The notes under the pieces: generated by a model
The model's input: only the letters and a program-made list of their open reading frames with translations
What the model was told of the DNA's origin: nothing
Database searches by the model: none
Program-made: the position numbers and the translations under genes
Assembly (NCBI RefSeq): GCF_058153355.1
Contig: NZ_CM177019.1
DNA length: 64,000 bases
Direction: 5' to 3' (one strand)
Shown here: one piece after another, positions 21,293 through 50,307 of the stretch
How the letters are laid out: each line of letters opens with the position of its first letter
Position numbering within the stretch: the stretch's first letter is position 1

Positions 21293-22488
21293 TCATAAGG
21301 CCATGATTACTTTATATTTTCCAATGTTATCAATATAATCCGCATACCACTGCATCATCTCCCTACGTCCTTCCAAATACAACGCATGGTTATACGTCCC
21401 ACGAATCGCATTCTTATCAACGTGAGCCAGCTGGGTTTCAATCCACGCTGTATTGAACCCTTCCTCATGCAAAATCGTACTCATCGTGTGGCGGAAACCA
21501 TGCCCCGTGACCCTCCCCGTGTATCCAATCCGCTTAAACACCTGATTAATACTCGCTTCGCTCATTGTTTTGCGAGGGTCATTCCTCCCAGGAAACACTA
21601 GGGGATACTGTCCAGACATCACTTTGAGTTGCTGTACGATTTCCAGCGCTTGGGTAGAGAGGGGCACCAGATGAGACCGTTTCATCTTCATACGCTCTGC
21701 AGGTATTTCCCACACCGCTTTTTCAAGATCAAACTCACTCCAGAAAGCACCTCGAAGCTCGCCGGTGCGAACTCCCGTAAGGATCAGCAGCCGAGCGGCA
21801 AGAACAACTAGCGGGCTTCCTGTATAGCTGGATAGGGCTTTAAAGAAGTCTGGTAACTCTTCAACAGTCAGGAAGGGATATGTTTCGATTCATGCCCTGA
21901 CATCGCGCTGGTTATATCCGCGGCAGGATTGTATTCCGCACGACCAGTAACTATGGCGTAACGAAAGACTTCGCTGCAGCGCTGGCGAACCTTTTTGGCC
22001 TTCTCTGTCGCGCCACGGCTTTCCATTCGACGTAGCACATTAAGCAGAACCAGCGGTTTGATTTCATTCACCGGCAGTTGACCGATATAGGGGAAAATAT
22101 CTTTATTAAAGGCCTCCAGAATGTCAGAAGCATACCCTTCTGACCACCGGCTCACCTTCGTACCGTGCCATTCAAGCGCCACAGCCTGAAACGTATTATT
22201 GAGTTGCACATCGCGAACCAGCTTTTCTTCTTTCTTGGCGAAAGACGGATCGATGCCCTCGGCCAGCTTTTTCTTGGCTTCATCGCGTAGTGCCCTCGCT
22301 TGTACAAGGGACACTGCTGGATAGACACTAAAAGCCATACGCTTCTCTTTTCCATAGAAGCGATACTTCATCCGCCAGTATCTGGAACCAGGGGGAACAA
22401 CCTCAAGATACAAACCAGCACCATCCGCCAGCTTATAGGCTTTCTCTCTGGGTTTAGCAGCGTCTACCTGTCGTGCATTAAGCTTCAT
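21293..22488 (-). pseudogene. P4-type tyrosine integrase, disrupted (N-terminal and catalytic parts in different frames)
   Basis: N-terminal ORF 21868-22488 (DUF4102/SAM-like arm-binding) and C-terminal ORF 21293-21715 (HGFRHT, LAH, Y catalytic residues) separated by a frame break; adjacent to tRNA-Thr 3-prime end. Confidence 0.7.
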
Positions 22489-22650
22489 TGGGGCATCTCC
22501 CTGGACCGAACATAGAATCCCCCCACTAATGCCCCCAACTGCAACTTGATTTCGGTTGAGTCCAGTTGATAACAGGAGACAAGATACGAGCCAGAAACCA
22601 CAGTGTACGGGCTTTTAGTTGATTTCGGTAGACTTGGGAAGAGTTTGAAA

Positions 22651-22726
22651 TGGTGCCGATAATAGGAGTCGAACCTACGACCTTCGCATTACGAATGCGC
22701 TGCTCTACCAACTGAGCTATATCGGC
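22651..22726 (-). tRNA. thrW: tRNA-Thr (anticodon CGU)
   Basis: 76-nt cloverleaf GCCGATATAGCTCAGTTGGTAGAGCAGCGCATTCGTAATGCGAAGGTCGTAGGTTCGACTCCTATTATCGGCACCA read on minus strand; CCA end faces integrase. Confidence 0.9.
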
Positions 22727-22840: not shown

Positions 22841-24094
22841 TTACGCACGAATGGTGTAATCACCAATGCCGATCCACTTGTAGGTGGTCAGAGCTTCCAG
22901 CCCCATTGGGCCGCGCGCGTGGAGTTTTTGTGTGCTTACCGCAACTTCCGCCCCCAGACCAAACTGGCCGCCGTCGGTAAACCGCGTAGAGGCGTTAACG
23001 TAAACAGCGGAGGAGTCCACTTCGTTGACAAAACGCTGGGCATTACGCATATCGCGGGTCAGGATCGCATCGGAGTGTTGCGTACCGTGTTCACGAATAT
23101 GGGCGATGGCATCGTCAAGATCGCTGACGATTTTGACGTTCAAGTCTAATGACAGGAACTCATCGTCATACTCTTCGGCTTTAACAGCCACCACCTTCGC
23201 TGGGCCTGCCTGCAACTGCGCCAGCGCAGTTGCGTCAGCGTGTAATGTCACGCCGCTTTCCGCCATTTGCTTGCTTAATGCGGGCAGGAAGCTATCTGCG
23301 ATGTTTTTATTTACCAGCAACGTTTCTACCGTATTACACGTGCTCGGGCGCTGAGTTTTCGCGTTGACAATCACTTTCAATGCTTCAGCGATCTCTGCAC
23401 TTTCATCAACGTAAATATGGCATACGCCTATACCACCTGTGATTACCGGAATCGTCGACTGCTCGCGGCACAGTTTATGCAACCCAGCCCCGCCGCGTGG
23501 GATCAGCATGTCGATGTATTTATCCATACGCAGCAGTTCACTGACCAGCGCACGGTCAGGATTATCAATCGCCTGCACGGTACCCGCCGGTAAACCGCAG
23601 GAATTCAGAGCATCCTGAATCACCGCTACTGTTGCAGCGTTAGTGCGACAGGTTTCTTTGCCGCCGCGCAGGATCACTGCGTTACCGGTTTTCAGGCACA
23701 GTGAAGCAACATCAACCGTCACGTTCGGGCGCGCTTCATAAATTACACCAATCACCCCCAGCGGTACGCGACGACGCTCCAGACGCAGGCCGCTGTCCAG
23801 CTCCCCGCCATCAATTACCTGCCCCACCGGATCAGCGAGGTTACACACCTGGCGCACATCATCGGCAATGCTTTTCAGCCGTGCGGGCGTCAGTGCCAGG
23901 CGGTCAAGCATCGCTTCGCTAAGGCCATTGGCACGCGCGTCAGCAACATCCTGGGCGTTAGCATTGAGGATGCTTTCGCTTTGTGCTTCCAGTTCATCGG
24001 CGATTTTTTCCAGCACGCGATTTTTTTCGCGGCTGGAGAGTTGCGCTAATTTATACGAGGCTTGCTTCGCGGAAATGCCCATTTGTTCCAGCAT
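22841..24094 (-). CDS. proA: Gamma-glutamyl phosphate reductase
   Basis: 417 aa, near-identical to E. coli ProA ([26 protein letters not shown]). Confidence 0.95.
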
Positions 24095-24104
24095 CGGCTG
24101 CTCC

Positions 24105-25208
24105 TTAACGGGTAATCATATCATCACGGTGAACGGCAACCGGGCCGTATTCATATCCCAGTATTGCATCAATTTCTTGCGAGTGGTGTCCGGCAATACG
24201 GCGTAATGCATCGCTGTTGTAACGACTGACGCCGTGGGCGATATCGCGACCTTCGAGGTTGCAAATGCGGATGACTTCACCACGCGAGAAATTGCCAGTC
24301 ACGCTTTTGATGCCTTTCGGCAACAGGGAGCTACCGCGTTCAAGAATGGCGGCGGTTGCCCCTTCATCTACCGTGATTTCACCCGCAGGCGGCGCACCGA
24401 AAATCCAACGTTTGCGGTTTTCAAGCGGAGTCGCCTGGGCATGGAACAGCGTACCGACGGAAATACCTTCCATCACATCACCAATGACACCCGGCTTACT
24501 GCCCGCGGCAATAATGGTGTCGATACCCGCGCGGCAAGCCACGTCAGCGGCCTGCAATTTGGTGCTCATGCCGCCGGTTCCAAGACCTGAAACGCTATCA
24601 CCGGCAATCGCGCGCAGTGCGTCATCAATGCCGTACACATCTTTAATCAGTTCTGCCTGCGGATTGCTACGCGGATCAGCGGTATACAAACCTTTTTGAT
24701 CGGTCAGCAACAACAGTTTATCGGCACCCGCCAGAATCGCCGCCAGCGCCGAAAGGTTATCGTTATCGCCGACTTTAATCTCTGCAGTAGCGACAGCATC
24801 GTTCTCATTGATTACCGGAACGATGTTGTTATCGAGCAGCGCACGCAAGGTGTCGCGGGCGTTCAGGAAGCGTTCACGGTCTTCCATATCAGCACGAGTT
24901 AGCAGCATCTGCCCGACGTGAATGCCATAAATCGAAAACAGCTGTTCCCACAGTTGAATCAGTCGACTCTGCCCTACCGCCGCCAGAAGTTGTTTCGAGG
25001 CGATAGTCGCTGGCAGTTCCGGGTAACCCAGGTGCTCACGTCCGGCGGCAATCGCCCCCGACGTCACAATTACAATCCGATGCCCGGCGGCATGTAGCTG
25101 CGCACACTGGCGAACAAGTTCAACGATATGGGCACGGTTCAGGCGGCGCGATCCGCCTGTTAGCACACTGGTGCCGAGTTTTACCACCAGCGTCTGGCTG
25201 TCACTCAT
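24105..25208 (-). CDS. proB: Glutamate 5-kinase
   Basis: Start moved to [16 protein letters not shown] (track start is an upstream alternative codon); 367 aa as in E. coli ProB. Confidence 0.95.
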
Positions 25209-25396
25209 GATTCTCTGCCATTCAATTTTAGGGAAAATGATATCAAACGAACGTTTTAGCAGGACTGTCGCCGGTTGCCAACCATCTGCGAGCAAAGCAT
25301 GGCGTTTTGTTGCGCGGGATCAGCAAGCGTAGCGGCAGTTGTTTACGCTTTTATTACAGATTTAATAAATTACCACATTTTAAGAATATCATTAAT

Positions 25397-25422
25397 CTGT
25401 AATATATCTTTAACAATCTCAG
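25397..25422 (+). promoter_or_regulatory. Pho box (PhoB binding site) of the phoE promoter
   Basis: CTGTAATATATCTTTAACAATCTCAG about 75-100 bp upstream of phoE, matching the known Pho box arrangement. Confidence 0.5.
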
Positions 25423-25495
25423 GTTAAAAACTTTCCTGTTTTCAACGGGGCTCTCCCGCTGAATATTCGCGCGTTAATTAAAATCAGGAATGAAA

Positions 25496-26551
25496 ATGAA
25501 AAAGAGCACTCTGGCATTAGTGGTGATGGGCATTGTGGCATCGGCATCCGTACAGGCCGCAGAAATATATAACAAAGACGGTAATAAACTGGATATCTAT
25601 GGCAAAGTTAAAGCCATGCATTATATGAGCGATAATGACAGTAAAGATGGCGACCAAAGTTATATCCGTTTTGGTTTTAAAGGCGAAACACAAATTAACG
25701 ATCAACTGACCGGTTATGGTCGCTGGGAAGCAGAGTTTGCCGGAAATAAAGCAGAGAGTGATACTGCTCAGCAAAAAACGCGTCTTGCTTTTGCCGGGTT
25801 GAAATATAAAGATTTGGGTTCTTTCGACTATGGTCGTAACCTGGGGGCGCTGTATGACGTGGAAGCCTGGACCGATATGTTCCCGGAATTCGGCGGCGAT
25901 TCCTCCGCGCAGACCGACAACTTTATGACCAAACGCGCCAGCGGTCTGGCAACGTATCGGAACACCGACTTCTTCGGCGTTATCGATGGTCTGAACTTAA
26001 CCCTGCAATATCAAGGAAAAAACGAAAACCGCGACGTTAAAAAGCAAAACGGTGATGGCTTCGGCACGTCATTGACATATGACTTTGGCGGCAGCGATTT
26101 TGCCATTAGTGGGGCCTATACCAACTCCGATCGCACCAACGAGCAGAACCTGCAAAGCCGTGGCACGGGCAAGCGTGCAGAAGCATGGGCAACAGGCCTG
26201 AAATACGATGCCAATAATATTTATCTGGCAACTTTTTATTCTGAAACGCGTAAAATGACGCCAATCTCTGGCGGCTTTGCCAATAAGACGCAGAACTTTG
26301 AAGCAGTCGCTCAATACCAATTCGACTTTGGCCTGCGTCCATCGCTGGGTTATGTCTTATCGAAAGGGAAAGATATTGAGGGCATCGGTGATGAGGATCT
26401 GGTTAATTATATCGATGTCGGTGCTACATATTATTTCAACAAAAATATGTCAGCGTTTGTTGATTATAAAATCAACCAACTGGACAGCGATAACAAATTA
26501 AATATTAATAATGATGATATTGTCGCGGTTGGGATGACCTATCAGTTTTAA
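25496..26551 (+). CDS. phoE: Outer membrane phosphoporin PhoE
   Basis: Start at [21 protein letters not shown] signal peptide; porin ending ..VAVGMTYQF; AGGA RBS. Confidence 0.95.
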
Positions 26552-26559
26552 TGGAGATT

Positions 26560-26589
26560 GCCGGATGCGGCGCATCCGGCACTTTTCAC

Positions 26590-26590
<1 letters not shown>
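26560..26590 (+). terminator. Rho-independent terminator shared by convergent phoE and crl
   Basis: Hairpin GCCGGATGCGGCGCATCCGGC followed by ACTTTTCACT. Confidence 0.6.
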
Positions 26591-27048
<458 letters not shown>

Positions 27049-28293
27049 TTAACACAATCGTTTTTCGATCCAGCTCGTGATTTCCTGAAGACCTTTGTCA
27101 AAATTCCGATACACCGGATTAAATGGAATCTCTAACAATTTACCATCAGCAGATGATGAGGTGATTAAGCGTGAGTCCTCTTCCGGGCTGAACGGATCGT
27201 TCTTCCAGTAGCCTGATAACATTGGCGTTGGGCAGCGACGGCCCAGCAATCCTTGCACTTTTAATGAATAACGATTCAGTTCCACACGCAACGCTTCATC
27301 GGAAGCATCATGCATCCCCAAACGACTCGCCAGAACGTCAAGATACATTTCCGGCACCTGTTGCTGGCACTTAAAATCACTCAACAGGGTATGAACTACC
27401 GGACCAAGACAGGCAACCGCTTTCAGACGCGGCGATTCAAGATATGCCAGACGCACAGCAACGTTAGCGCCAAAACGGAAACCAAAGGCCGCGACACGGG
27501 TGTGATCCACCCACGGGACGTTAGGCAGCGCCTTTAAGACGTGCTGATGCAACAAGCTGGAGTCCTGGGTGAGCTTCCATTTTGAAGAAAAGCCCACCGA
27601 CGGCATATCAATAGTCAGCATCGCAATGCCGCGCGGGGCAAAATAACGTTCATACAGACTGTAATAATCCGTCTGCATCGCATCCAGACCACCACACATT
27701 AATACCGTCGGGAACGGGCCATCGCCTTTCGGCATATGCAAAAAGCCGGTGATGGGCGCACCGCCTGGTACGGTAAACTCCATCTGCCGCATCGTGCCCG
27801 GCAGACGTTGGGCGGCCTCTTCATAGGCACGGTTTGACAAAGCCTGCGCTTGCTCGGCCAGGTCATCCCCTTTCAGATGAGGATAGGCGGCAATGTTGTA
27901 CAACGTGGCCGCATGCAGCCAGTGACGACCACTGAGTTGTGGATCTTCTTCCGCACAAGCTTTTTGTTGCCACACCATCGCCTGGGTGGCCCATTCATAA
28001 ATCCAGTTGCCGCCGCGGTAGCCAATCACCGTATCGTATAAATCATCGTCGGTACGTTCAGCATCGCTCATCACAATACGCGCCTGAACGTCGAGGATTT
28101 CACGTGGGTCAATGCCGCGCCAGATCCACATCAGACGGTTTATCATGCGATACCAGTGGGGGATGGTTTTACCATCAAGGGCCGACTGCACAGGCGGTTG
28201 TGCGCCGTGATTAAAGCGGCGGACTAGCGTCGAGGTTTCAGGATGTTTAAAGCGGGGTTTGAACAGGGTTTCGCTCAGGTTTGCCTGTGTCAT
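27049..28293 (-). CDS. frsA: Esterase FrsA (fermentation/respiration switch protein)
   Basis: 414 aa alpha/beta hydrolase matching E. coli FrsA. Confidence 0.95.
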
Positions 28294-28384
28294 GGATGCA
28301 GCCTCCAGAATACTTACTGGAAACTATTGTAACCTGCCTGAAGTTAAAAAGAACAACGCCCGGCAGTGCCAGGCGTTGAAAAGA

Positions 28385-28843
28385 TTAGCGACCGGAGATT
28401 GGCGGGACGAATACGACGCCCATATCCCACGGTTGTTCAATCCAGGTATCTTGTGGGATATCAACAACATAATCATCAACCAGCGGACGACCTGCCGGTT
28501 TAGCGAAGATGGTGACAAAGTGCGCTTTTGGATACATTTCACGAATCGCAACCGCAGTACCGCCGGTATCCACCAGATCATCAATAACGATGAAGCCTTC
28601 GCCATCGCCTTCTGCGCGTTTCAGCACTTTAAGCTCGCGCTGGTTGTCGTGATCGTAGCTGGAAATACAAACGGTATCGACATGACGAATACCCAGTTCA
28701 CGCGCCAGTAACGCACCCGGTACCAGACCGCCACGGCTTACGGCAATAATGCCTTTCCATTGTTCAGAAGGCATCAGTCGGCTTGCGAGTTTACGTGCAT
28801 GGATCTGCAACATGTCCCAGGTGACGATGTATTTTTCGCTCAT
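28385..28843 (-). CDS. gpt: Xanthine-guanine phosphoribosyltransferase
   Basis: 152 aa [23 protein letters not shown].. with PRPP-binding [11 protein letters not shown]. Confidence 0.95.
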
Positions 28844-29103
28844 GTGAAGTGTCCCAGCCTGTTTATCTACGGCTTAAAAAGTGTTCGAGGGGAAAATAGG
28901 TTGCGCGAGATTATAGAGATCTGACGCACTAAAAACCAGTATTTCACATGAGTCCGCGTCTTTTTACGCACAGCCTCTCCCTGACGCGGGATAAAGTGGT
29001 ATTCTCAAACATATCTCGCAAGCCTGTCTTGTGTTGACAACATTTTCTGCTAACCCTGTGACCTGCAATACTGTTTTGCGGGTGATCGACAAGGAGACTT
29101 AAC

Positions 29104-30561
29104 GTGTCTGAACTGTCTCAATTATCTCCACAGCCGCTGTGGGATATTTTTGCCAAAATCTGTTCTATTCCTCACCCGTCCTATCATGAAGAGCAACTCG
29201 CTGAATACATTGTTGGTTGGGCAAAAGAGAAAGGTTTCCATGTCGAACGCGATCAGGTGGGTAATATCCTGATTCGTAAACCTGCCACCGCAGGTATGGA
29301 AAATCGTAAACCGGTCGTCTTGCAGGCCCACCTCGATATGGTGCCGCAGAAAAATAACGACACCGTGCATGACTTCACGAAAGATCCTATCCAGCCTTAT
29401 ATTGATGGCGAATGGGTTAAAGCGCGCGGCACCACGCTGGGCGCGGATAACGGCATTGGTATGGCCTCTGCACTGGCGGTTCTGGCTGACGAAAACGTGG
29501 TTCACGGCCCGCTGGAAGTGCTGCTAACCATGACCGAAGAAGCCGGTATGGACGGGGCGTTCGGCTTACAGAGCAACTGGTTGCAGGCTGACATTCTGAT
29601 TAACACCGACTCCGAAGAAGAAGGTGAAATCTACATGGGTTGTGCTGGGGGGATCGACTTCACCTCCAACCTGCATTTAGATCGTGAAGCCGTTCCGGCT
29701 GGTTTTGAAACCTTCAAATTAACCTTAAAAGGTCTGAAAGGCGGTCACTCCGGCGGTGAAATCCACGTTGGCCTGGGTAACGCGAACAAACTGCTGGTGC
29801 GCTTCCTGGCGGGACATGCAGAAGAACTGGACCTGCGTCTTATCGATTTCAACGGCGGCACACTGCGTAACGCCATCCCGCGTGAAGCCTTTGCGACCAT
29901 TGCTGTCGCAGCTGATAAAGTCGACGCCCTGAAAACGCTGGTGAATACCTATCAGGAGATCCTGAAAAACGAGCTGGCAGAGAAAGAGAAAAATCTGGCA
30001 TTGCTGCTGGACTCTGTTGCGAACGATAAAGCTGCCCTGATTGCGAAATCTCGCGATACCTTTATTCGTCTGCTGAACGCCACCCCGAACGGTGTGATCC
30101 GCAACTCCGACGTAGCAAAAGGCGTGGTTGAAACCTCACTGAACGTCGGTGTCGTGACCATGACCGACAACAACGTAGAAATTCACTGCCTGATCCGTTC
30201 TCTGATCGACAGCGGTAAAGACTACGTGGTGAGCATGCTGGATTCGCTGGGTAAACTGGCAGGCGCGAAAACCGAAGCGAAAGGCGCATATCCTGGCTGG
30301 CAGCCGGACGCTAATTCTCCGGTGATGCATCTGGTACGTGAAACCTATCAGCGCCTGTTCAACAAGACGCCGAACATCCAGATTATTCACGCGGGCCTGG
30401 AATGTGGTCTGTTCAAAAAACCGTATCCGGAAATGGACATGGTTTCTATCGGGCCAACCATCACCGGTCCGCACTCTCCGGATGAGCAGGTTCACATCGA
30501 AAGCGTAGGTCATTACTGGACACTACTGACTGAACTGCTGAAAGAAATTCCGGCGAAGTAA
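29104..30561 (+). CDS. pepD: Cytosol non-specific dipeptidase (aminoacyl-histidine dipeptidase)
   Basis: 485 aa M20-family peptidase, GTG start as in E. coli pepD. Confidence 0.95.
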   Translation: MSELSQLSPQPLWDIFAKICSIPHPSYHEEQLAEYIVGWAKEKGFHVERDQVGNILIRKPATAGMENRKPVVLQAHLDMVPQKNNDTVHDFTKDPIQPYIDGEWVKARGTTLGADNGIGMASALAVLADENVVHGPLEVLLTMTEEAGMDGAFGLQSNWLQADILINTDSEEEGEIYMGCAGGIDFTSNLHLDREAVPAGFETFKLTLKGLKGGHSGGEIHVGLGNANKLLVRFLAGHAEELDLRLIDFNGGTLRNAIPREAFATIAVAADKVDALKTLVNTYQEILKNELAEKEKNLALLLDSVANDKAALIAKSRDTFIRLLNATPNGVIRNSDVAKGVVETSLNVGVVTMTDNNVEIHCLIRSLIDSGKDYVVSMLDSLGKLAGAKTEAKGAYPGWQPDANSPVMHLVRETYQRLFNKTPNIQIIHAGLECGLFKKPYPEMDMVSIGPTITGPHSPDEQVHIESVGHYWTLLTELLKEIPAK

Positions 30562-30571
30562 TTACAATAAT

Positions 30572-30601
30572 GTCCACGCCTGCGGGCGTGGACTACTGTT
30601 T
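30572..30601 (+). terminator. Rho-independent terminator after pepD
   Basis: Hairpin GTCCACGCC-TGC-GGGCGTGGAC followed by T-containing tail. Confidence 0.55.
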
Positions 30602-30608
30602 GAAGCCA

Positions 30609-30851
30609 ATGGCTATCTATATCGAAATAACAAAACATTATGAAACTCATGAAAAGGTCGCATATTTATATAGCTGCGACCATATTTCATGGGGAGAATT
30701 TCTGATCATCAAAGAAAGTTTTGCGCTGGAATCCGTGAAAGAACTTAAGGGTGAAAAGCAGAATTTTTATATGTTCAGAGCCTGGGGCAAAGTCAGGAAA
30801 ACATACTTAGCCACGGGAGAATTTCCCCTGGAAACATGTTACGCCGCTTAA
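30609..30851 (+). CDS. Hypothetical small protein (about 80 aa), AT-rich
   Basis: ORF after pepD terminator, start moved to first ATG beyond the hairpin; no recognised motif. Confidence 0.3.
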   Translation: MAIYIEITKHYETHEKVAYLYSCDHISWGEFLIIKESFALESVKELKGEKQNFYMFRAWGKVRKTYLATGEFPLETCYAA

Positions 30852-30859
30852 AATCAGAA

Positions 30860-31384
30860 TCATTTTTCCACGCGTTTTATATTTACCATTTTGGCATTAC
30901 GCCTGCACCACATGGCAATGGCGGCAACCACTAATACCAGTTCCAGTAAAAAAGACCAGTGTAATAAAAAATTGAGCCACCACGGATGATGTACCGCTGT
31001 AATATGAAAGAATGCAAATGGTTGGTTAACGAAAGGCATCAACCACCAGATATCACCGACCAGCGTATCGAGTAATAAATGTGCGATACTATTCAGGCAA
31101 AACACCACGCCCAACCACGCCGGAAGTTTATTCTTCGCAATTGCGGCCCAGACTAATGTCGCCGCCAGCAGAGCAAACCATAATAATGGCCAATGAGACG
31201 GGTAAAGATGATGATGTCGTTGCCCGTTATCCACCAGATAACACCAGAAGAGATCAAAATCGGGTGCAACGGCCCCGACTAAGCCAATAACCATCGCCCA
31301 CCGCGCATGACGAGAAATCAGCGGTAGGCGTTTCACTAAAGTACAAGTTATTAAATAACCAGCCGGAAGATGACCGATAAACAT
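30860..31384 (-). CDS. Membrane-bound metal-dependent hydrolase-like protein (YdjM/DUF457-like)
   Basis: Polytopic membrane protein with His-rich motifs (HHHLYPSH, DFDL); start moved to MFIGHLPAG; family assignment tentative. Confidence 0.45.
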   Translation of the reverse strand: MFIGHLPAGYLITCTLVKRLPLISRHARWAMVIGLVGAVAPDFDLFWCYLVDNGQRHHHLYPSHWPLLWFALLAATLVWAAIAKNKLPAWLGVVFCLNSIAHLLLDTLVGDIWWLMPFVNQPFAFFHITAVHHPWWLNFLLHWSFLLELVLVVAAIAMWCRRNAKMVNIKRVEK

Positions 31385-31445: not shown

Positions 31446-32060
31446 TTACACAGCAACAAAAGCCATCCCGGTAAATATCCGTCGCGGATTGCCACGTTCA
31501 ATTTGATGATGGAACATTCGCCGCTGCGATTTCAGCGCCGCGCTATTTTCCTGTTGCTGTTGCTCCAGCTTCCAGGCAATCAGCAATCGCGCCAGCCGTT
31601 TGTTGGCATGTTGGCTGCGCTCTGACTGAACCTTCACACTAATACCGGATGCCAGATGCGTGGCGCGCACAGCCGAGTCGGTTTTATTGACATGTTGACC
31701 GCCCGGCCCCGACGAACGCAGCGTCTCATAATGGATCGCATCGGATTGCTCCTGCTCATCTGCAGTAAAACGCCCAATGCCCAGAAACCAGTTTTTGCGC
31801 CCATGATGAGGGCGATACGGACTCGGACAAATCCACTGGATAGTGCCACACCAGCTTTCGCTTAGTGCCCATGCGTTGTCGCCATCAAGTGAAACCAGCG
31901 CCGAACGCAGCGTGTCAGAGTAGCGACCCGTTTCTGTTTCCAGCACCGTTACCGCGACGTCTTGTCGGGTAGCTTCTTTAATCAACCTGTCCAGCGCCTT
32001 TTTCACTGCGAGACAACATTCTTCCGGTCCCTGAGCTGAGGAGAGTTGCAGCAAGATCAT
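31446..32060 (-). CDS. prfH: Peptide chain release factor homolog PrfH (GGQ motif), apparently intact
   Basis: Start moved to [19 protein letters not shown]; [13 protein letters not shown] motif; start overlaps stop of rtcB-like gene. Confidence 0.85.
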
Positions 32061-33196
32061 CCTTTTTTCCCTCCACTGTTTTTGAGCGTTAGCACCGGAC
32101 GCAGTCGCGCGACAGGAATAATTAACCCAGCCTGCACCAGACATTGCACCACGCTTTCAGCCGATTTATAAGCTTGTGGCGCTTCTTCAAAGATGAGTTG
32201 TTTATCGCGACAAATTACCCGGCTGCCAAGTTCAGTACGTGAGAGTTGCGTCGCCGTGTATTTCGCTGCCAGACGCCCTTTACACTCGGTGCGCCCCCAT
32301 TTACGCCCTGCCCCATGCGCCAGTGAGTGAAGCGTTTTTTCGTTCGCAACAGGTTTAACCAGCCAGGAGTAATCACCGCGTGAACCGGGAATAATCACCA
32401 GACCGTTGTCATCCGGCGTAGCCCCTTTACGGTGTAACCATCCTTGTTGATCGCCGATTCGACATGCGCTAACAAAGTTATGCGCCACATCCAGAACCGA
32501 ATTTCCGTTGGCCTTAACTTGTTGCATTATGCGCAAAGCGATCAGCTGGCGATTAATACGCGCAAACGCCAGCGCATCATCATGTTCCGCAATATAACTT
32601 AGCGCGTCGTCACTGCCTTCCGGCAAACCATGATGCGAAAACGAGGCAATATGCCGCTGTAAAATAGACTGCCCTAAACCACGCGAGCCGCTATGGACCA
32701 GCAGTTGCAGATGCTGCGCATCCAGACCTGACAGTGCAAACAGTTCAGCGTCGATAATTTGATCAACTTGTTGCAGTTCTGCGAAGTGGTTTCCGCCACC
32801 GATAGAGCCAAGCGCGCAGCGCCACGGATGCTGTGCAAACGCTGACGGCAGGTTTTCCTCCAGCCAGCTTTCTTCAGCAACGTCATCCAGCACAGATAAT
32901 CGCTTTTCAAACTTATCGGCGTTGTATTTACGCGCGAGAATATCTGTTTGCCATAGCGCCATGCCGCAGCCGATATCATTGCCGACCAGTGCCGGGTAAA
33001 AACGGCCTACGGAGAAGAACGCTGCGCCAATCGGATAGCCGCGTCCGGGGTGTAAATCTGGCATCCCTACTACGCGTTGCATGTCGGGTAAATTTGCCGA
33101 GGTGTGTAATTGTTGGATCGCTGAACTCTCGATCCACAGGTCATCAGATGCGATGGTAAATACCGCATCGGATAAGGGACGAATATATTTGCCCAT
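32057..33196 (-). CDS. RtcB-family RNA ligase paired with PrfH (release factor H-coupled RtcB)
   Basis: 379 aa; RtcB metal-binding pattern ([36 protein letters not shown]); translationally coupled to prfH. Confidence 0.85.
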
Positions 33197-33513
33197 GTAT
33201 CATTCCATTTATACTCGTCATACTTCAAGTTGCATGTACTGCGACTGCGTTCGTTCACCCCAGTCACTTACTTTAGTAAGCTCCTGGGGATTCACTCGCT
33301 TGTCGCCTTCCTGCAACTCGAATTATTTAGAGTATATAAATATAAAAATCAGGAAATGGCAGACGAATCCAGGGCAAGAAAAAAAGAATTAATCCTGGAA
33401 AGGTCTGCAAAGAGTCATTGATAAAGGATTTTTCATGATTTACCTCCTTGCAGTTTGTGGAATAAGAAAACGCGCACATATTAGGCGGGCGTTATTTTCA
33501 TTGCAAGCTGGAT

Positions 33514-33966
33514 TTAGTGTTGCGGTTTATATCGCATATGAAAATTAGTAAACCACGCTCCCCGGCATTCAACGCGCTGCTGCTTAACTGTCTGAAAACC
33601 ATAACGTTCAAAAAAGGGTTTTGCGGTTATGCTGGCGTCCACCGTAAGTTCGGATTCAGACTTAATCAAAGGTTTTAACAAAGCGCTGGCAACCCCACGG
33701 CGAGTATATTCAGGGTCAACAAATAACATATCGATATAATGCTCAATGCAGGTAATAAAGCCGACCAGTTGTGTATTAATCACCGCAACCCGCACTTGTG
33801 ATTTCGCGAGTTTCTCTTTCCATCGATGTTCATCAATCTGCGCCCAGGCGGCAATTTGTTGTGGTGAATAATGCTGACTGGCGGTCATCGTAACCGCTCT
33901 AATAAAAATAGCGCATAGTTGCTGAAAATCGCCAGGCTGATAGTTCCTTATTTGTATATTATTCAT
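33514..33966 (-). CDS. yafP: GNAT-family acetyltransferase YafP
   Basis: 150 aa [21 protein letters not shown].. matching E. coli YafP; start overlaps dinB stop. Confidence 0.9.
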
Positions 33967-35022: not shown

Positions 35023-35038
35023 CACCTCTCAACACTGG
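35023..35038 (-). promoter_or_regulatory. LexA (SOS) box of dinB
   Basis: CTGGTAAAGTATACAG (CTG-N10-CAG) immediately upstream of dinB start. Confidence 0.6.
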
Positions 35039-35088
35039 TAAAGTATACAGTGATTTCAGAGTTTGAGAAATGCGTAAAGATTCAGCAT

Positions 35089-41372: not shown

Positions 41373-42881
<1,509 letters not shown>

Positions 42882-42987
42882 CATGCCTGCAATCTGGGAA
42901 ACCGGGGTAGAAAAAAACTTGCAGGCCATAACAGTATCTACGGGTCCGCACCTGTTTTTATGCGTCTGCCCGTTTGTAGGCCCGAAC

Positions 42988-43902
42988 TTACTGCAGCAGG
43001 CTGGAAACCATGCTGGACATGCTGTTGGACTGTTTCAGCATGGTAATACCGGTCTGCATCAGCACCTGCTGTTTGGTCATGTTGGACGCTTCCGTCGCGT
43101 AATCGGTATCCATAATGTTGCCGATAGCGACTTCGGTGTTGTCCTGCATGCTGGTCAGGTTGTTTGCGGTGTCGTTCAGACGGTTGATAGACGCACCCAG
43201 CTTGGACTGGATCTGCGAAACATCATCCATCGCGGTAGAAATGCTGGTGATCATCTGGTTAGCCGAGCCAGATGCGGTCAGTTCAGTACCGCCAGAAACG
43301 CCTGCGGTGCCCGTGGTGTCAGCCTGATCCGCACTGAAGGAGTTGCTGATAGCAGAAAGATCCGTCACCAGCGTGTTCAGCTGGCTTGAAATATTCACGG
43401 TCATGGTGTCGGAAGATTCCGCTCCCACCTGGAAAGTTACTGCGCTCTGGAACAGACCGTCAGTACCGGTGTTGCTGGTACCGGAAACACCGAACAGGTT
43501 GGTGCCGCCATAAGTGGTGTTTTGCAGCATGTCAGACATCTGCTGACCCAGTTCGTCGTATTCGTCCTGCATCGCCTGCAGATCGTCGTCGCTGTAGGTG
43601 CCGTTCGCTGCCTGAGTTGACAGGTCTTTCATACGACCCAGCACATCAGACATTTCATCGAACATACTGTCGGCGGTTTGCAGCATCGCCGTTGCATCAT
43701 TAATGTTGCTCAGTGCCACACCCATACCGCTGGACTGTGCAGTCAGACGGTTAGCAATCTGTTTGCCTGCGGCGTCATCGGCAGAAGAGTTAATCCGGTT
43801 ACCTGTTGCCAGGCGTTCCATAGATGTAGACAAAGAAGAGCTGCTTTTGCTGATTGCATTAACGGCGGCCATTGAGGCGTTATTGGTGTTAATAGATAAC
43901 AT
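42988..43902 (-). CDS. lafA: Lateral flagellin
   Basis: Start moved to MLSINTNNASMAAVNAI with AAGGAG RBS (track start is an upstream alternative codon); conserved flagellin N- and C-terminal domains. Confidence 0.9.
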   Translation of the reverse strand: MLSINTNNASMAAVNAISKSSSSLSTSMERLATGNRINSSADDAAGKQIANRLTAQSSGMGVALSNINDATAMLQTADSMFDEMSDVLGRMKDLSTQAANGTYSDDDLQAMQDEYDELGQQMSDMLQNTTYGGTNLFGVSGTSNTGTDGLFQSAVTFQVGAESSDTMTVNISSQLNTLVTDLSAISNSFSADQADTTGTAGVSGGTELTASGSANQMITSISTAMDDVSQIQSKLGASINRLNDTANNLTSMQDNTEVAIGNIMDTDYATEASNMTKQQVLMQTGITMLKQSNSMSSMVSSLLQ

Positions 43903-44388
43903 GATACTGCTCCTTGGGATTAATCGTTTTCGTTTCGATACCCTGTAAAAACGACACCTCAGGAGCAAACTTAAAATCACTATGAAAAAAAATTTCGCCA
44001 CGTATTATCTGATGCCACTTTTAGCTAAAAAAAGCAGAGTTTAAATTCAGATAAAAAGATTATTAGCAATATCTGCCACATGGCCAGGTATCAAAATATG
44101 TCTTTATCAATTGCTTGATATAGTTAAGATTGTCATCAATTAACGCGTTTTCTTCACAATGTACTGATGCCAAAATTTACATTGCGTTGCAAATAGTACA
44201 CATTTGGCTATTGTACCTGTCCTGTCATTTCGTTACATTCCCACGCCATATAGTGATTAAGAATAATCCTATTACCATAAAATATTAATTATCACGCAGA
44301 AAAATCATCTTCTCAGGGACGTATAAGACTGTGCTTTATGTAAAGCACTATCAGGAACCATTTATCCCTTGCTAAGGTAAACTCAACT

Positions 44389-48849: not shown

Positions 48850-49042
48850 GTTGGATCCTTACCGGTAAATCGTGCCGGTTAAAAGCGGCGTGAAGTTGGA
48901 GATTCTTAAGTTCCGTAAACCGGGCGCCAGACACCGGATGCAGCCTGCATACGGGCACAAACATAAAAATATGTGCGAACTCGTAGATACTGTTATGGCC
49001 TGCAAGTTTTTTTCTACCCCGGTTTCCCAGATTGCAGGCATG

Positions 49043-50269
<1,227 letters not shown>

Positions 50270-50307
50270 TGATAAGCGTAGCGCATCAGGCAATCTGGCA
50301 CCAGACA

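Follow-up and report, generated by a model that had tools for sequence, protein, structure and literature searches.

A probable leader–rtcB2–prfH operon for ribosome rescue and repair in a divergent Escherichia lineage

In Escherichia coli ATCC 25922, the RNA ligase RtcB2 and the release factor homologue PrfH rescue and re-ligate ribosomes that have been cut at A1493/G1494 of 16S rRNA, as established by in vitro, cryo-EM, and in vivo evidence (PMC9304027, PMC9223846, PMC13166195; Tian et al. 2022 PNAS; Maviza et al. 2022, 2026). Peptide release by the E. coli protein (EcPrfH) is restricted to the damaged ribosome, and its partner EcRtcB2 ligates 16S rRNA cut by ColE3 or CdiA-CT within the 30S subunit, not cleaved tRNA (PMC9304027). 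Overexpressed RtcB2 is able to protect cells by itself (PMC9223846, PMC13166195), and PrfH is therefore an accelerator that is not strictly required. The function of the pair is thus already known, the system having been characterized experimentally since 2022.

Related systems differ from this pair in substrate or in added functions. RtcB1 of the E. coli RtcB1–RtcA system (rtcBA), which is controlled by σ54 and RtcR, shares the ligase superfamily and the chemistry of RtcB2, but its published identity is ~28% and it repairs tRNAs, not ColE3-cut 30S subunits (PMC9304027). The Capnocytophaga gingivalis protein PrfH-CT (PDB 9MOR/9MQ4) carries a basic C-terminal tail, through which it rescues intact non-stop ribosomes too (Tian et al. 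2026). In Pseudomonas aeruginosa, armZ (PA5471) of the PA5471.1–armZ–PA5470 locus is controlled by ribosome stalling, and the stall-sensing logic of its leader has been demonstrated (PMC12057347, PMC13041342, and Morita et al. 2009 as cited there); ArmZ has an added anti-MexZ role (PMC12057347). Here we compare with these systems a locus in a 64,000-nucleotide stretch of Escherichia DNA (hereafter, the window). With a probability of about 85%, we regard it as a complete leader–rtcB2–prfH operon, an enterobacterial ribosome rescue-and-repair module.

The rtcB2–prfH pair

The first-pass annotation of this DNA had described two uninterrupted genes that overlap by a few nucleotides, and this is borne out: rtcB2 lies directly upstream of prfH in a shared orientation, both ORFs occupy the positions given in Table 1, and the two are joined by an ATGA in which the rtcB2 TGA (32059–32057) and the prfH ATG (32060–32058) overlap by 4 nt, with a GGAGG 9 nt 5′ of the latter. 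The junction sequence is unchanged across four Escherichia genomes, and the overlap is 4, 1, or 0 nt in Salmonella, Pseudomonas, and Proteus. The ATGA suggests that translation of prfH is coupled to that of rtcB2, as was proposed for these genes as early as 2006 (PMC1586002). An alternative prfH start at ATG 32144, which would give a 232-aa ORF, was rejected, as it is supported by no homologue; the 204-aa start is favored by the 7SA4 chain, which is 204 aa long and aligns from residue 1, by the TIGR03072 alignment, which begins at residue 2, and by the RefSeq annotation of relatives, which gives the gene 615 nt. A programmed −1 frameshift producing an RtcB2–PrfH fusion at an A6 run (GGGAAAAAAGG) was also rejected on reading the frame, because the A6 stretch, read in phase with rtcB2, does not form an X XXY YYZ heptamer.

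Table 1. Features of the operon and its leader, with positions in the window
Feature	Position	Strand	Description
prfH CDS, 204 aa, N-terminus MILLQ	31446..32060	-	short form of peptide chain release factor H, lacking a C-terminal tail
Gene junction	32057..32074	-	GGAGG 32074-32070, then ATGA 32060-32057; read from the sequence
rtcB2 CDS, 379 aa	32057..33196	-	release-factor-H-coupled RtcB family RNA ligase
Helix P2 (predicted)	33201..33358	-	CATTTCC 33358-33352 pairs with GGAATG 33206-33201
ERIC/IRU repeat, 127 bp	33210..33336	.	between leader hairpin and rtcB2 start
Helix P1 (predicted)	33359..33408	-	5′ arm GCAGAC...TCCAGG 33408-33394; 3′ arm CCTGGA...GTCTGC 33373-33359
Leader ORF, 15 codons, MKNPLSMTLCRPFQD, stop TAA	33389..33436	-	strong Shine-Dalgarno AAGGAGGT upstream
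Helix P0 (predicted)	33407..33451	-	GCAAGGAG 33451-33444 pairs with CTCTTTGC 33414-33407
σ70-like promoter, candidate	33478..33506	-	TTGCAA 33506-33501, 17-nt spacer, TAATAT 33483-33478

Both proteins match the NCBIfam equivalog models of their families over the full length and far beyond chance. RtcB2 scores 639 bits against NF007153 (cut-off 407, E = 2e-192, residues 1–378 on a 379-position model) and 620 bits against TIGR03073 (cut-off 272), and PrfH scores 329 bits against TIGR03072 (cut-off 167, E = 1e-98) over positions 1–200 of 200. The full metal-binding motifs that the annotation had ascribed to the rtcB-like protein are present as D74/C77 (DIGCG), H137 (GNHF), H168 (HSGSRG), H239 (AHN), and H294 (HGAGR). 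Counted along the HMMER alignment, D74, C77, H137, and H168 are D95, C98, H203, and H234 of the P. horikoshii enzyme; H239 and H294 correspond to the H329 and H404 motifs. His294, the GMP-accepting histidine and the site of the H294N mutation that inactivates EcRtcB2 in the literature, is kept. The gene has no indels relative to its relatives, is 99.5% identical to that of strain N96 and 96.0% identical to that of a Nissle derivative, and is under purifying selection (dN/dS = 0.12). Its product is therefore likely to share the 30S ligase activity of EcRtcB2, judging from the sequence.

Matches to the RF2 and RF1 models are confined to residues 26–192 of PrfH and score far under the cut-offs, and release factor domain 1 is absent. 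Against chain 8 of PDB 7SA4, the structure of ATCC 25922 PrfH bound to the damaged ribosome (Tian et al. 2022 PNAS), the window protein differs by five substitutions in 202 aligned residues (E = 8e-134). The GGQ motif of peptidyl-tRNA hydrolysis, already pointed out in the annotation, is found at G120-G121-Q122, and Gln122, whose change in Q122E gives a published inactive mutant, is kept. So are all 15 residues that recognize the A1493 3′-phosphate, h18/S12, C1914, and C1054, which are identical to those of EcPrfH (A9, Q10, G11, P12, R52, S53, R83, H85, H86, R88, K89, N90, R181, H184, and R189). The gene lacks indels relative to its relatives and has a dN/dS of 0.06. C. gingivalis PrfH belongs to the same family (E = 2.5e-39) but has 231 residues with the basic tail, whereas the 204-aa window protein ends where EcPrfH ends and has no such tail. 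Release by the window PrfH would probably be restricted to the damaged ribosome, as it is for EcPrfH.

Compared with ATCC 25922, the locus has the same site between pepD and yafP/dinB, the same gene order, protein lengths (379 + 204 aa), and ATGA junction, and all of the catalytic and rRNA-contact residues; the pair is 96–97% identical to that of ATCC 25922, and the PrfH of the Nissle derivative equals 7SA4 over residues 1–202. The window allele differs in that its Escherichia lineage is divergent, with ~96% identity to most E. coli in housekeeping genes, and in having two extra genes between prfH and pepD. A YdjM-like gene downstream of prfH was considered as a third component of the module and rejected, because Klebsiella aerogenes has dinB–yafP–ydjM-like–pepD without rtcB2–prfH, distant homologues have unrelated neighbors, and the gene is missing from most E. 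coli that carry an intact pair. The K-12 locus shares the site, the flanks, and an upstream leader with its ERIC element, but the pair there is degraded, as the annotation had stated: both K-12 genes, ykfJ and prfH, are annotated as partial pseudogenes. A 1,027-bp deletion (about 31972–32998 in window positions) crosses the gene junction, so that rtcB2 has lost 310 codons at its C-terminal end and prfH its initial 36–37 codons; the deletion junction falls within a short direct repeat, TG(T/C)CGGGTA. An intact pair is not unusual in E. coli, at least 80% of its DNA being present in 2,674 of 5,426 complete genomes, about half. In the window, alignment to full-length homologues, the check proposed with the annotation, gave complete domains and neither internal deletions nor loss of catalytic residues in either protein, and the annotation's reading therefore stands. 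Its description of the pair as a candidate functional rescue module was, if anything, an understatement, since a 96–97% identical pair has been shown to function in ATCC 25922.

The leader upstream of rtcB2

Upstream of rtcB2 lies a promoter-like site, a short ORF, and a set of predicted RNA helices, an arrangement conserved in 12 Enterobacterales lineages and in Pseudomonas. The promoter-like site matches the consensus at 8 of 12 positions, under the threshold of 9/12 used in our promoter scan, and most of the loci inspected by eye (Klebsiella, Citrobacter, Providencia, and Pseudomonas) show a TTGC(A/G)N–17 nt–TAnnAT pattern whose distance to the leader ORF is constant. The operon thus probably has its own promoter. 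The leader ORF is open in all 16 loci compared (12 Enterobacterales lineages plus 2 Pseudomonas). Its Shine-Dalgarno sequence lies 6 nt from the ATG (8 in P. aeruginosa), codons 2–9 vary freely, and the distance from the ATG to the Cys codon is always a multiple of 3, such that changes in length keep the frame. The leader accompanies rtcB2 into unrelated neighborhoods in Providencia, Proteus, Limnobaculum, and Pseudomonas. Rfam holds no family for it, the near matches being ERIC-derived models under their gathering scores.

Helix P1 was found as an inverted repeat and is predicted independently by RNAalifold; its 5′ arm falls within leader codons 10–15 and its loop contains the leader stop codon. 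The MAFFT alignment of the leader misplaced the Proteus and Cronobacter arms, and a padded alignment anchored by hand on the helix arms, a procedure that favors pairing, was used instead. In that alignment, all 14 sequences can form the outer 6 bp of P1, and two of the six pairs show compensatory AU-to-GC changes in addition to GU intermediates; none of 500 shuffles reached the observed values, and slid controls pair at ≤44% versus 90%. When sequences were folded singly, P0 appeared in the minimum-free-energy structure for 8 of 10 species. Its 5′ arm overlaps the leader Shine-Dalgarno and its 3′ arm covers leader codons 8–10; because both arms are invariant, it offers no covariation evidence. 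P2, which minimum-free-energy folding predicts for most species, has as its 3′ arm the presumed ribosome-binding region of rtcB2. In the same hand-anchored alignment, 88% of its cells are paired, with a UA/AU swap (five versus four sequences) and a variable bulge register.

A canonical intrinsic terminator (stem plus U-tract) was not found after P1; a U-rich run begins 9–11 nt past it. When the 3′ half of the leader was blocked in constrained folds to mimic a ribosome, the rtcB2 ribosome-binding region was not consistently freed, and an ermC-like switch, with this region exposed by a leader-bound ribosome, is thus unsupported by folding. An alternative helix, TTGCCC/GGGCAA, at the rtcB2 start is conserved in position but in no individual sequence exceeds shuffles. 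RNA constraints alone can account for much of the conservation toward the C-terminus of the leader peptide.

The 127-bp insertion within the P2 loop is a large imperfect palindrome with arms that are 80% complementary and with the conserved central core of ERIC/IRU repeats. We take it to be an ERIC element because the ERIC2 and ERIC1R primer sequences match it with one and two mismatches, where none would be expected by chance. The Nissle-type locus has no ERIC, and its spacer is 128 nt shorter; as the PrfH of the Nissle derivative is identical to that of ATCC 25922, the ATCC 25922 leader probably lacks the element as well. The in vivo chromosomal evidence for the system comes from ATCC 25922, whereas in the window the ERIC separates the leader hairpin from rtcB2.

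A counterpart of the leader lies before armZ. The window proteins share 59% and 61% identity with ArmZ and PA5470, respectively, and are equal to them in length; the ATGA junction is the same. The ORF preceding armZ, MIQFSTLCRLRLA, fits the published PA5471.1 (13 codons, Gln3 = CAG, Phe4 = TTC; PMC13041342), and reading by eye shows that it and the window leader have in common an LCR peptide and the nucleotides CTTTGCAGR. Both also have a strong Shine-Dalgarno, a conserved GTCTGCC element, and, ahead of the ligase gene's start, ATGGATTGG; the two leaders are homologous on this sequence evidence. They differ in length (13 versus 15 codons) and in the distance from leader to gene, which is ~250 nt in P. 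aeruginosa, with extra GC-rich hairpins, and ~110 nt in the window without the ERIC.

Function and regulation of the operon

On the model established for the ATCC 25922 pair, colicin E3-type or CdiA-CT rRNases would cleave 16S rRNA between A1493 and G1494 and stall the ribosome. PrfH, lacking domain 1, would bind in the A site and recognize the new A1493 3′-phosphate end, and its GGQ motif would release the peptide, so that the ribosome could be disassembled. RtcB2, as a GTP- and Mn-dependent 3′-phosphate/5′-OH ligase acting through a His294-GMP intermediate, would then reseal the 16S rRNA within the 30S subunit. These steps are likely at the window locus, the experiments having been done with a 96–97% identical pair. 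None of the four proteins tested matched PADLOC anti-phage defense models.

Other readings of the genes fit less well. That an unusual mRNA signal is read by PrfH as a third release factor of class I, and that RtcB2 is a general tRNA/mRNA repair ligase, was suggested by homology to RF1/RF2 domains 2–4 and to RtcB, by a 2006 hypothesis (PMC1586002), and by the default view of RtcB. EcPrfH, however, releases only on the damaged ribosome and EcRtcB2 mends cut 30S subunits, not cleaved tRNAs (PMC9304027), and protection does not extend to colicins E5 and D, which cut tRNA (PMC9223846); this reading has been tested and refuted for 96–97% identical orthologues, and we consider it scarcely credible here. 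Nearly as improbable is that the main role of RtcB2 is to act as an anti-repressor on a regulator of efflux pumps, in the manner of ArmZ and MexZ. ArmZ is an orthologue of equal length at 59% identity that binds MexZ (PMC12057347), but the catalytic residues of RtcB2 are all kept under purifying selection, and the ligase activity of EcRtcB2 is demonstrated. It is also very unlikely that the ORFs are intact while the operon has been silenced by the ERIC and is decaying as in K-12. The ERIC does separate the leader from rtcB2, and the K-12 lineage combines the same ERIC with a deleted operon. Both genes, however, are under strong purifying selection, and ERIC-like inserts at the same site in Escherichia sp. 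E1V33 and K. spallanzanii coexist with full-length or near-full-length rtcB2 matches. In the predicted fold, moreover, the P2 arms stay apposed because the ERIC folds on itself in the loop.

As to expression, we find it somewhat probable that the operon's own promoter and the leader ORF regulate it according to ribosome performance. The 3′ half of the leader ORF would form P1 with downstream RNA; expression would stay low while healthy ribosomes complete the leader, and slow, stalled, or damaged ribosomes would alter the leader fold and raise it, with control exerted at either transcription termination or rtcB2 initiation. That the upstream region is instead only a promoter and 5′ untranslated region, its short ORF incidental and expression constitutive and low, is unlikely but deserves weight. 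The missing canonical terminator, the constrained folds with no clear switch, the invariance of P0 and most of P1 (with covariation at only two of six outer pairs), and the overlap of the conserved peptide C-terminus with the RNA arms all accord with it. Against this stand an ORF that is open in every locus although codons 2–9 vary, a strong Shine-Dalgarno at fixed spacing with length differences that are always multiples of 3, and the experimentally regulatory role of the homologous P. aeruginosa leader (PMC12057347, PMC13041342). Improbable, in our judgment, is that rtcB2–prfH is transcribed mainly by read-through from a LexA-controlled dinB–yafP and so has an SOS function. These genes lie upstream on the same strand across a 317-nt gap, no strong terminator is predicted after yafP, dinB is preceded by a LexA-box-like site (35035–35050), and ERIC elements are usually found in transcribed regions. 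The leader and promoter-like site nevertheless persist beside unrelated upstream genes, among them an amidohydrolase, DeoR- or AsnC-type regulators, and a peptidase. The yafP–rtcB2 spacer contains no LexA box, the sole one near the locus being that at dinB. Control by σ54, as at rtcBA, was also considered, and no such site was found near or upstream of the window rtcB2.

The pair itself is nothing new, being a well-preserved allele of a characterized defense against colicin E3-type and CdiA-CT rRNases. The leader could matter: the functional papers are silent on how E. coli decides to express RtcB2–PrfH, and neither in the E. coli RtcB2/PrfH papers nor in the literature searched did we find a link to PA5471.1 or any regulation of E. 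coli rtcB2–prfH. We see about an even chance that the Enterobacterales rtcB2–prfH operon is a self-sensing circuit, in which the leader ORF and helices P0, P1, and P2 read the cell's own ribosomes. If this is true, then cut or stalled ribosomes would cause the leader to switch on the repair genes, the leader would correspond in enterobacteria to the PA5471.1–armZ attenuator of P. aeruginosa, and the ERIC insertions would be natural variants of the switch. Aminoglycoside-inducible resistance through armZ and MexXY and the repair of ribosomes in enterobacteria would then share an ancestral stall-sensing operon.

The rtcB2–prfH operon and its conservation

The first-pass annotation had described an uninterrupted rtcB-like gene with full metal-binding motifs, overlapping by a few nucleotides a prfH gene with a GGQ motif, and had proposed the pair as a candidate functional ribosome or RNA rescue module. 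Both ORFs are intact and lie at the positions that it gave; their overlap is the 4-nt sequence ATGA, in which the stop codon of rtcB2 meets the start codon of prfH, and GGAGG lies 9 nt 5′ of the prfH ATG. A 232-aa prfH frame starting at 32144 was dropped, being used by no relative.

RtcB2, the RNA ligase, aligns to 378 of the 379 positions of NF007153, an NCBIfam equivalog (639 bits; cut-off 407), and also matches TIGR03073, “release_rtcB.” Peptide chain release factor PrfH, here the short form and not the tailed PrfH-CT, aligns to all 200 positions of TIGR03072 (329 bits; cut-off 167). Among solved structures, PrfH matches chain 8 of 7SA4, the E. coli protein on a damaged 70S ribosome (E = 8e-134), from which it differs by five substitutions in 202 residues (K20R, V56I, H110R, I195T, and V202I) and no gaps. 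All contacts to 3′-phosphorylated A1493, h18/S12, C1914, and C1054 named in the cryo-EM paper are unchanged, as is the GGQ motif (Q122), and RtcB2 retains the RtcB metal ligands and His294, whose H294N substitution served as the dead control in published work. Relative to the allele of a Nissle derivative, whose PrfH residues 1–202 are identical to 7SA4, there are 15 substitutions in RtcB2, 7 in PrfH, and no indels; with the catalytic residues also kept, neither protein shows the internal deletions or lost residues that would argue against function. The dN/dS values of 0.12 (rtcB2) and 0.06 (prfH) place both genes under purifying selection. The observation is thereby confirmed and its interpretation as a candidate rescue module supported.

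The system itself is a known one, and it is common. The operon, its probable translational coupling, and a deletion of ~1,000 nt in K-12 were described in 2006 (PMC1586002). Work from 2022 showed that peptide release by PrfH is confined to ribosomes with a cut between A1493 and G1494 and that RtcB2 re-ligates the cut 30S subunit, not cleaved tRNAs; in vivo, the two together reversed ColE3-like damage (PMC9304027). ATCC 25922 without the chromosomal genes is sensitized to colicin E3 (PMC9223846), and PrfH accelerates the repair of translating ribosomes (PMC13166195).

In K-12 the pair is degraded, as the first-pass annotation had stated: the MG1655 annotation lists the two genes as partial pseudogenes, and alignment to the window resolves a single 1,027-bp deletion that spans the gene junction and is bounded by the short direct repeat TG(T/C)CGGGTA. 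Of 5,426 complete E. coli genomes, 2,674 match the 1,751-bp pair over 80% or more of its length, a coverage that alone leaves frameshifts possible; on this count an intact pair is ordinary in E. coli. The other complete genomes mostly show 41% coverage, as in K-12, or smaller remnants. The housekeeping genes of the window (proA to pepD) are only ~96% identical to nearly all complete E. coli genomes, the best match being one goat isolate at 99.0%; the window thus comes from a divergent Escherichia lineage of which few complete genomes exist.

Features of the rtcB2–prfH region and the rest of the window
Feature	Position	Strand	Remarks
rtcB2	33196 to 32057	minus	379 aa
prfH	32060 to 31446	minus	204 aa; begins MILLQ
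K-12 deletion	~31972–32998		1,027 bp
σ70-like site	33506–33478	minus	TTGCAA-17 nt-TAATAT; promoter-like
Leader ORF	33436–33389	minus	15 codons, MKNPLSMTLCRPFQD; strong preceding SD, AAGGAGGT
Helix P1	33408–33394 with 33373–33359	minus	5′ arm, leader codons 10–15; leader stop codon in loop
Helix P2		minus	CATTTCC can pair with GGAATG just 5′ of rtcB2 start
ERIC/IRU repeat	33210–33336		127 bp; in loop of P2
YdjM-family (PF04307) membrane hydrolase	30860–31384	minus	between prfH and pepD
93-aa ORF	30570–30851	plus	between prfH and pepD
Hairpin	30572–30593		strong, 9 bp, GC-rich; directly after pepD stop
proA to pepD	22841–30561
dinB–yafP overlap	33963–33966		4 nt
LexA-box-like site	35035–35050		CTG-N10-CAG, 5′ of dinB
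Flag-2 cluster	35089–64000
lafA	42988–44001
IS110-family copies	41648–42981, 48943–50276		inverted; 1,334 nt each
naRNA4 matches	41376–41453, 41581–41658		REP-derived
tRNA	22654–22726		tRNA-Thr in relatives' annotation at matching position
206-aa ORF	within 21868–22726 (span including the tRNA)		after tRNA

Neighboring genes and the surrounding window

The hydrolase and the 93-aa ORF, which has no match in Pfam, NCBIfam, or PADLOC, occur in only 327 of the 5,426 complete E. coli genomes. They were ruled out as parts of the module: in Klebsiella aerogenes the hydrolase lies between yafP and pepD without rtcB2–prfH. The hydrolase is ancestral to the dinB–pepD interval in Enterobacteriaceae, independent of the pair. 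It may be cotranscribed with prfH here, given a gap of 61 nt and no clear terminator between them. The hairpin after pepD scores as terminator-like on both strands and sits within the opening codons of the 93-aa ORF, which, if a gene, therefore probably starts at internal Met14. The yafN–yafO toxin–antitoxin pair, found between dinB and yafP in K-12, is absent here.

The Flag-2 cluster for lateral flagella, of which K-12 has only remnants, is largely complete here (lafU, motA, a FliA-like sigma factor, fliK, fliD, lafA, flgB-L, and others, named from the annotation of strain N96, the closest genome). The two IS110-family copies are 99% identical, encode a 326-aa transposase (NF033542), and belong to an element that we take to be possibly IS621-like; they flank 5,961 bp of the cluster, including lafA, a segment that could invert or be lost, and the naRNA4 matches adjoin the left copy. 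The 206-aa ORF corresponds to just the N-terminal half of an integrase of the P4 type and is the remnant of an island at the tRNA; other insertions are present at that tRNA in the closest complete genomes.

A conserved leader upstream of rtcB2

The 317-nt yafP–rtcB2 spacer contains a promoter-like site, a leader ORF, predicted RNA helices (P1 and P2), and an ERIC repeat. We compared rtcB2 loci of other Escherichia species, Klebsiella oxytoca, K. spallanzanii, Citrobacter, Salmonella, Cronobacter, Kosakonia, Limnobaculum, Providencia, Proteus, two more Enterobacteriaceae, and two Pseudomonas. Every locus has a short ORF of 15, 14, or 13 codons at the equivalent place; its SD spacing is constant across Enterobacterales (8 nt in P. 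aeruginosa), its ATG-to-Cys-codon distance is always a multiple of three, and codons 2–9 vary freely before a conserved ...LC(R/G)... end. The promoter-like site, leader ORF, and P1 (33389–33506) are kept in 12 Enterobacterales lineages and in Pseudomonas. Providencia, Proteus, Limnobaculum, and Pseudomonas have entirely different flanking genes, so the leader belongs to the rtcB2 operon and not to the dinB neighborhood. The ERIC-bearing spot looks like a recurrent insertion site: Escherichia sp. E1V33 and K. spallanzanii have shorter ERIC-like inserts at the equivalent AT-rich position, and no such insert is present in Nissle-type E. coli.

In each of the 14 Enterobacterales sequences the six outermost pairs of P1 form, and the changes between lineages are compensatory: Escherichia has GCAGAC/GUCUGC, Limnobaculum GCAGGC/GCCUGC, Proteus GCGGAC/GUCCGC, Providencia GCGGGC/GCCCGC, and Klebsiella G-U intermediates. 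Neither the observed pairing nor the observed covariation was reached in any of 500 shuffles, and the proposed structure is 90% paired versus at most 44% for slid partners, in an alignment whose arms were placed by hand with N padding and which is thus biased toward structure. P1 was also found by RNAalifold.

In P. aeruginosa, the RtcB-like protein ArmZ (PA5471) is followed by prfH (PA5470), and armZ is controlled by the 13-codon leader PA5471.1, on which a stalled ribosome blocks terminator formation and so induces armZ (PMC12057347, PMC13041342). Identity to the RtcB2 and PrfH of the window is 59% for ArmZ and 61% for PA5470; the lengths are equal and the ATGA junction is the same. The ORF before armZ, MIQFSTLCRLRLA, agrees with the published Gln3 (CAG) and Phe4 (TTC) of PA5471.1; it shares CTTTGCAGR with the window leader, and GTCTGCC and ATGGATTGG with other Enterobacterales leaders; the window has ATGGAATGA. 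These shared features make the window leader a shorter homolog of an element shown by experiment to be regulatory.

We therefore favor, with a probability of roughly 0.6, a model in which the leader would couple operon expression to ribosome performance. No canonical terminator was found after P1, and when the 3′ half of the leader was blocked in silico, the rtcB2 ribosome-binding region did not consistently become free. An alternative helix, TTGCCC (33377–33372) with GGGCAA at the rtcB2 start, would exclude inner P1 and recurs at the equivalent position in most species; in any single sequence it is no better than shuffles. Control could also depend on Rho, as in tnaC.

Neither a leader, ArmZ, nor regulation comes up in the E. 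coli RtcB2/PrfH papers, and in the literature searched no publication links a leader peptide, prfH, ArmZ, and RtcB2, an absence that is not proof of novelty. The conserved, PA5471.1-homologous leader is the only part of this system that may be new for Enterobacteria, and it is readily testable.
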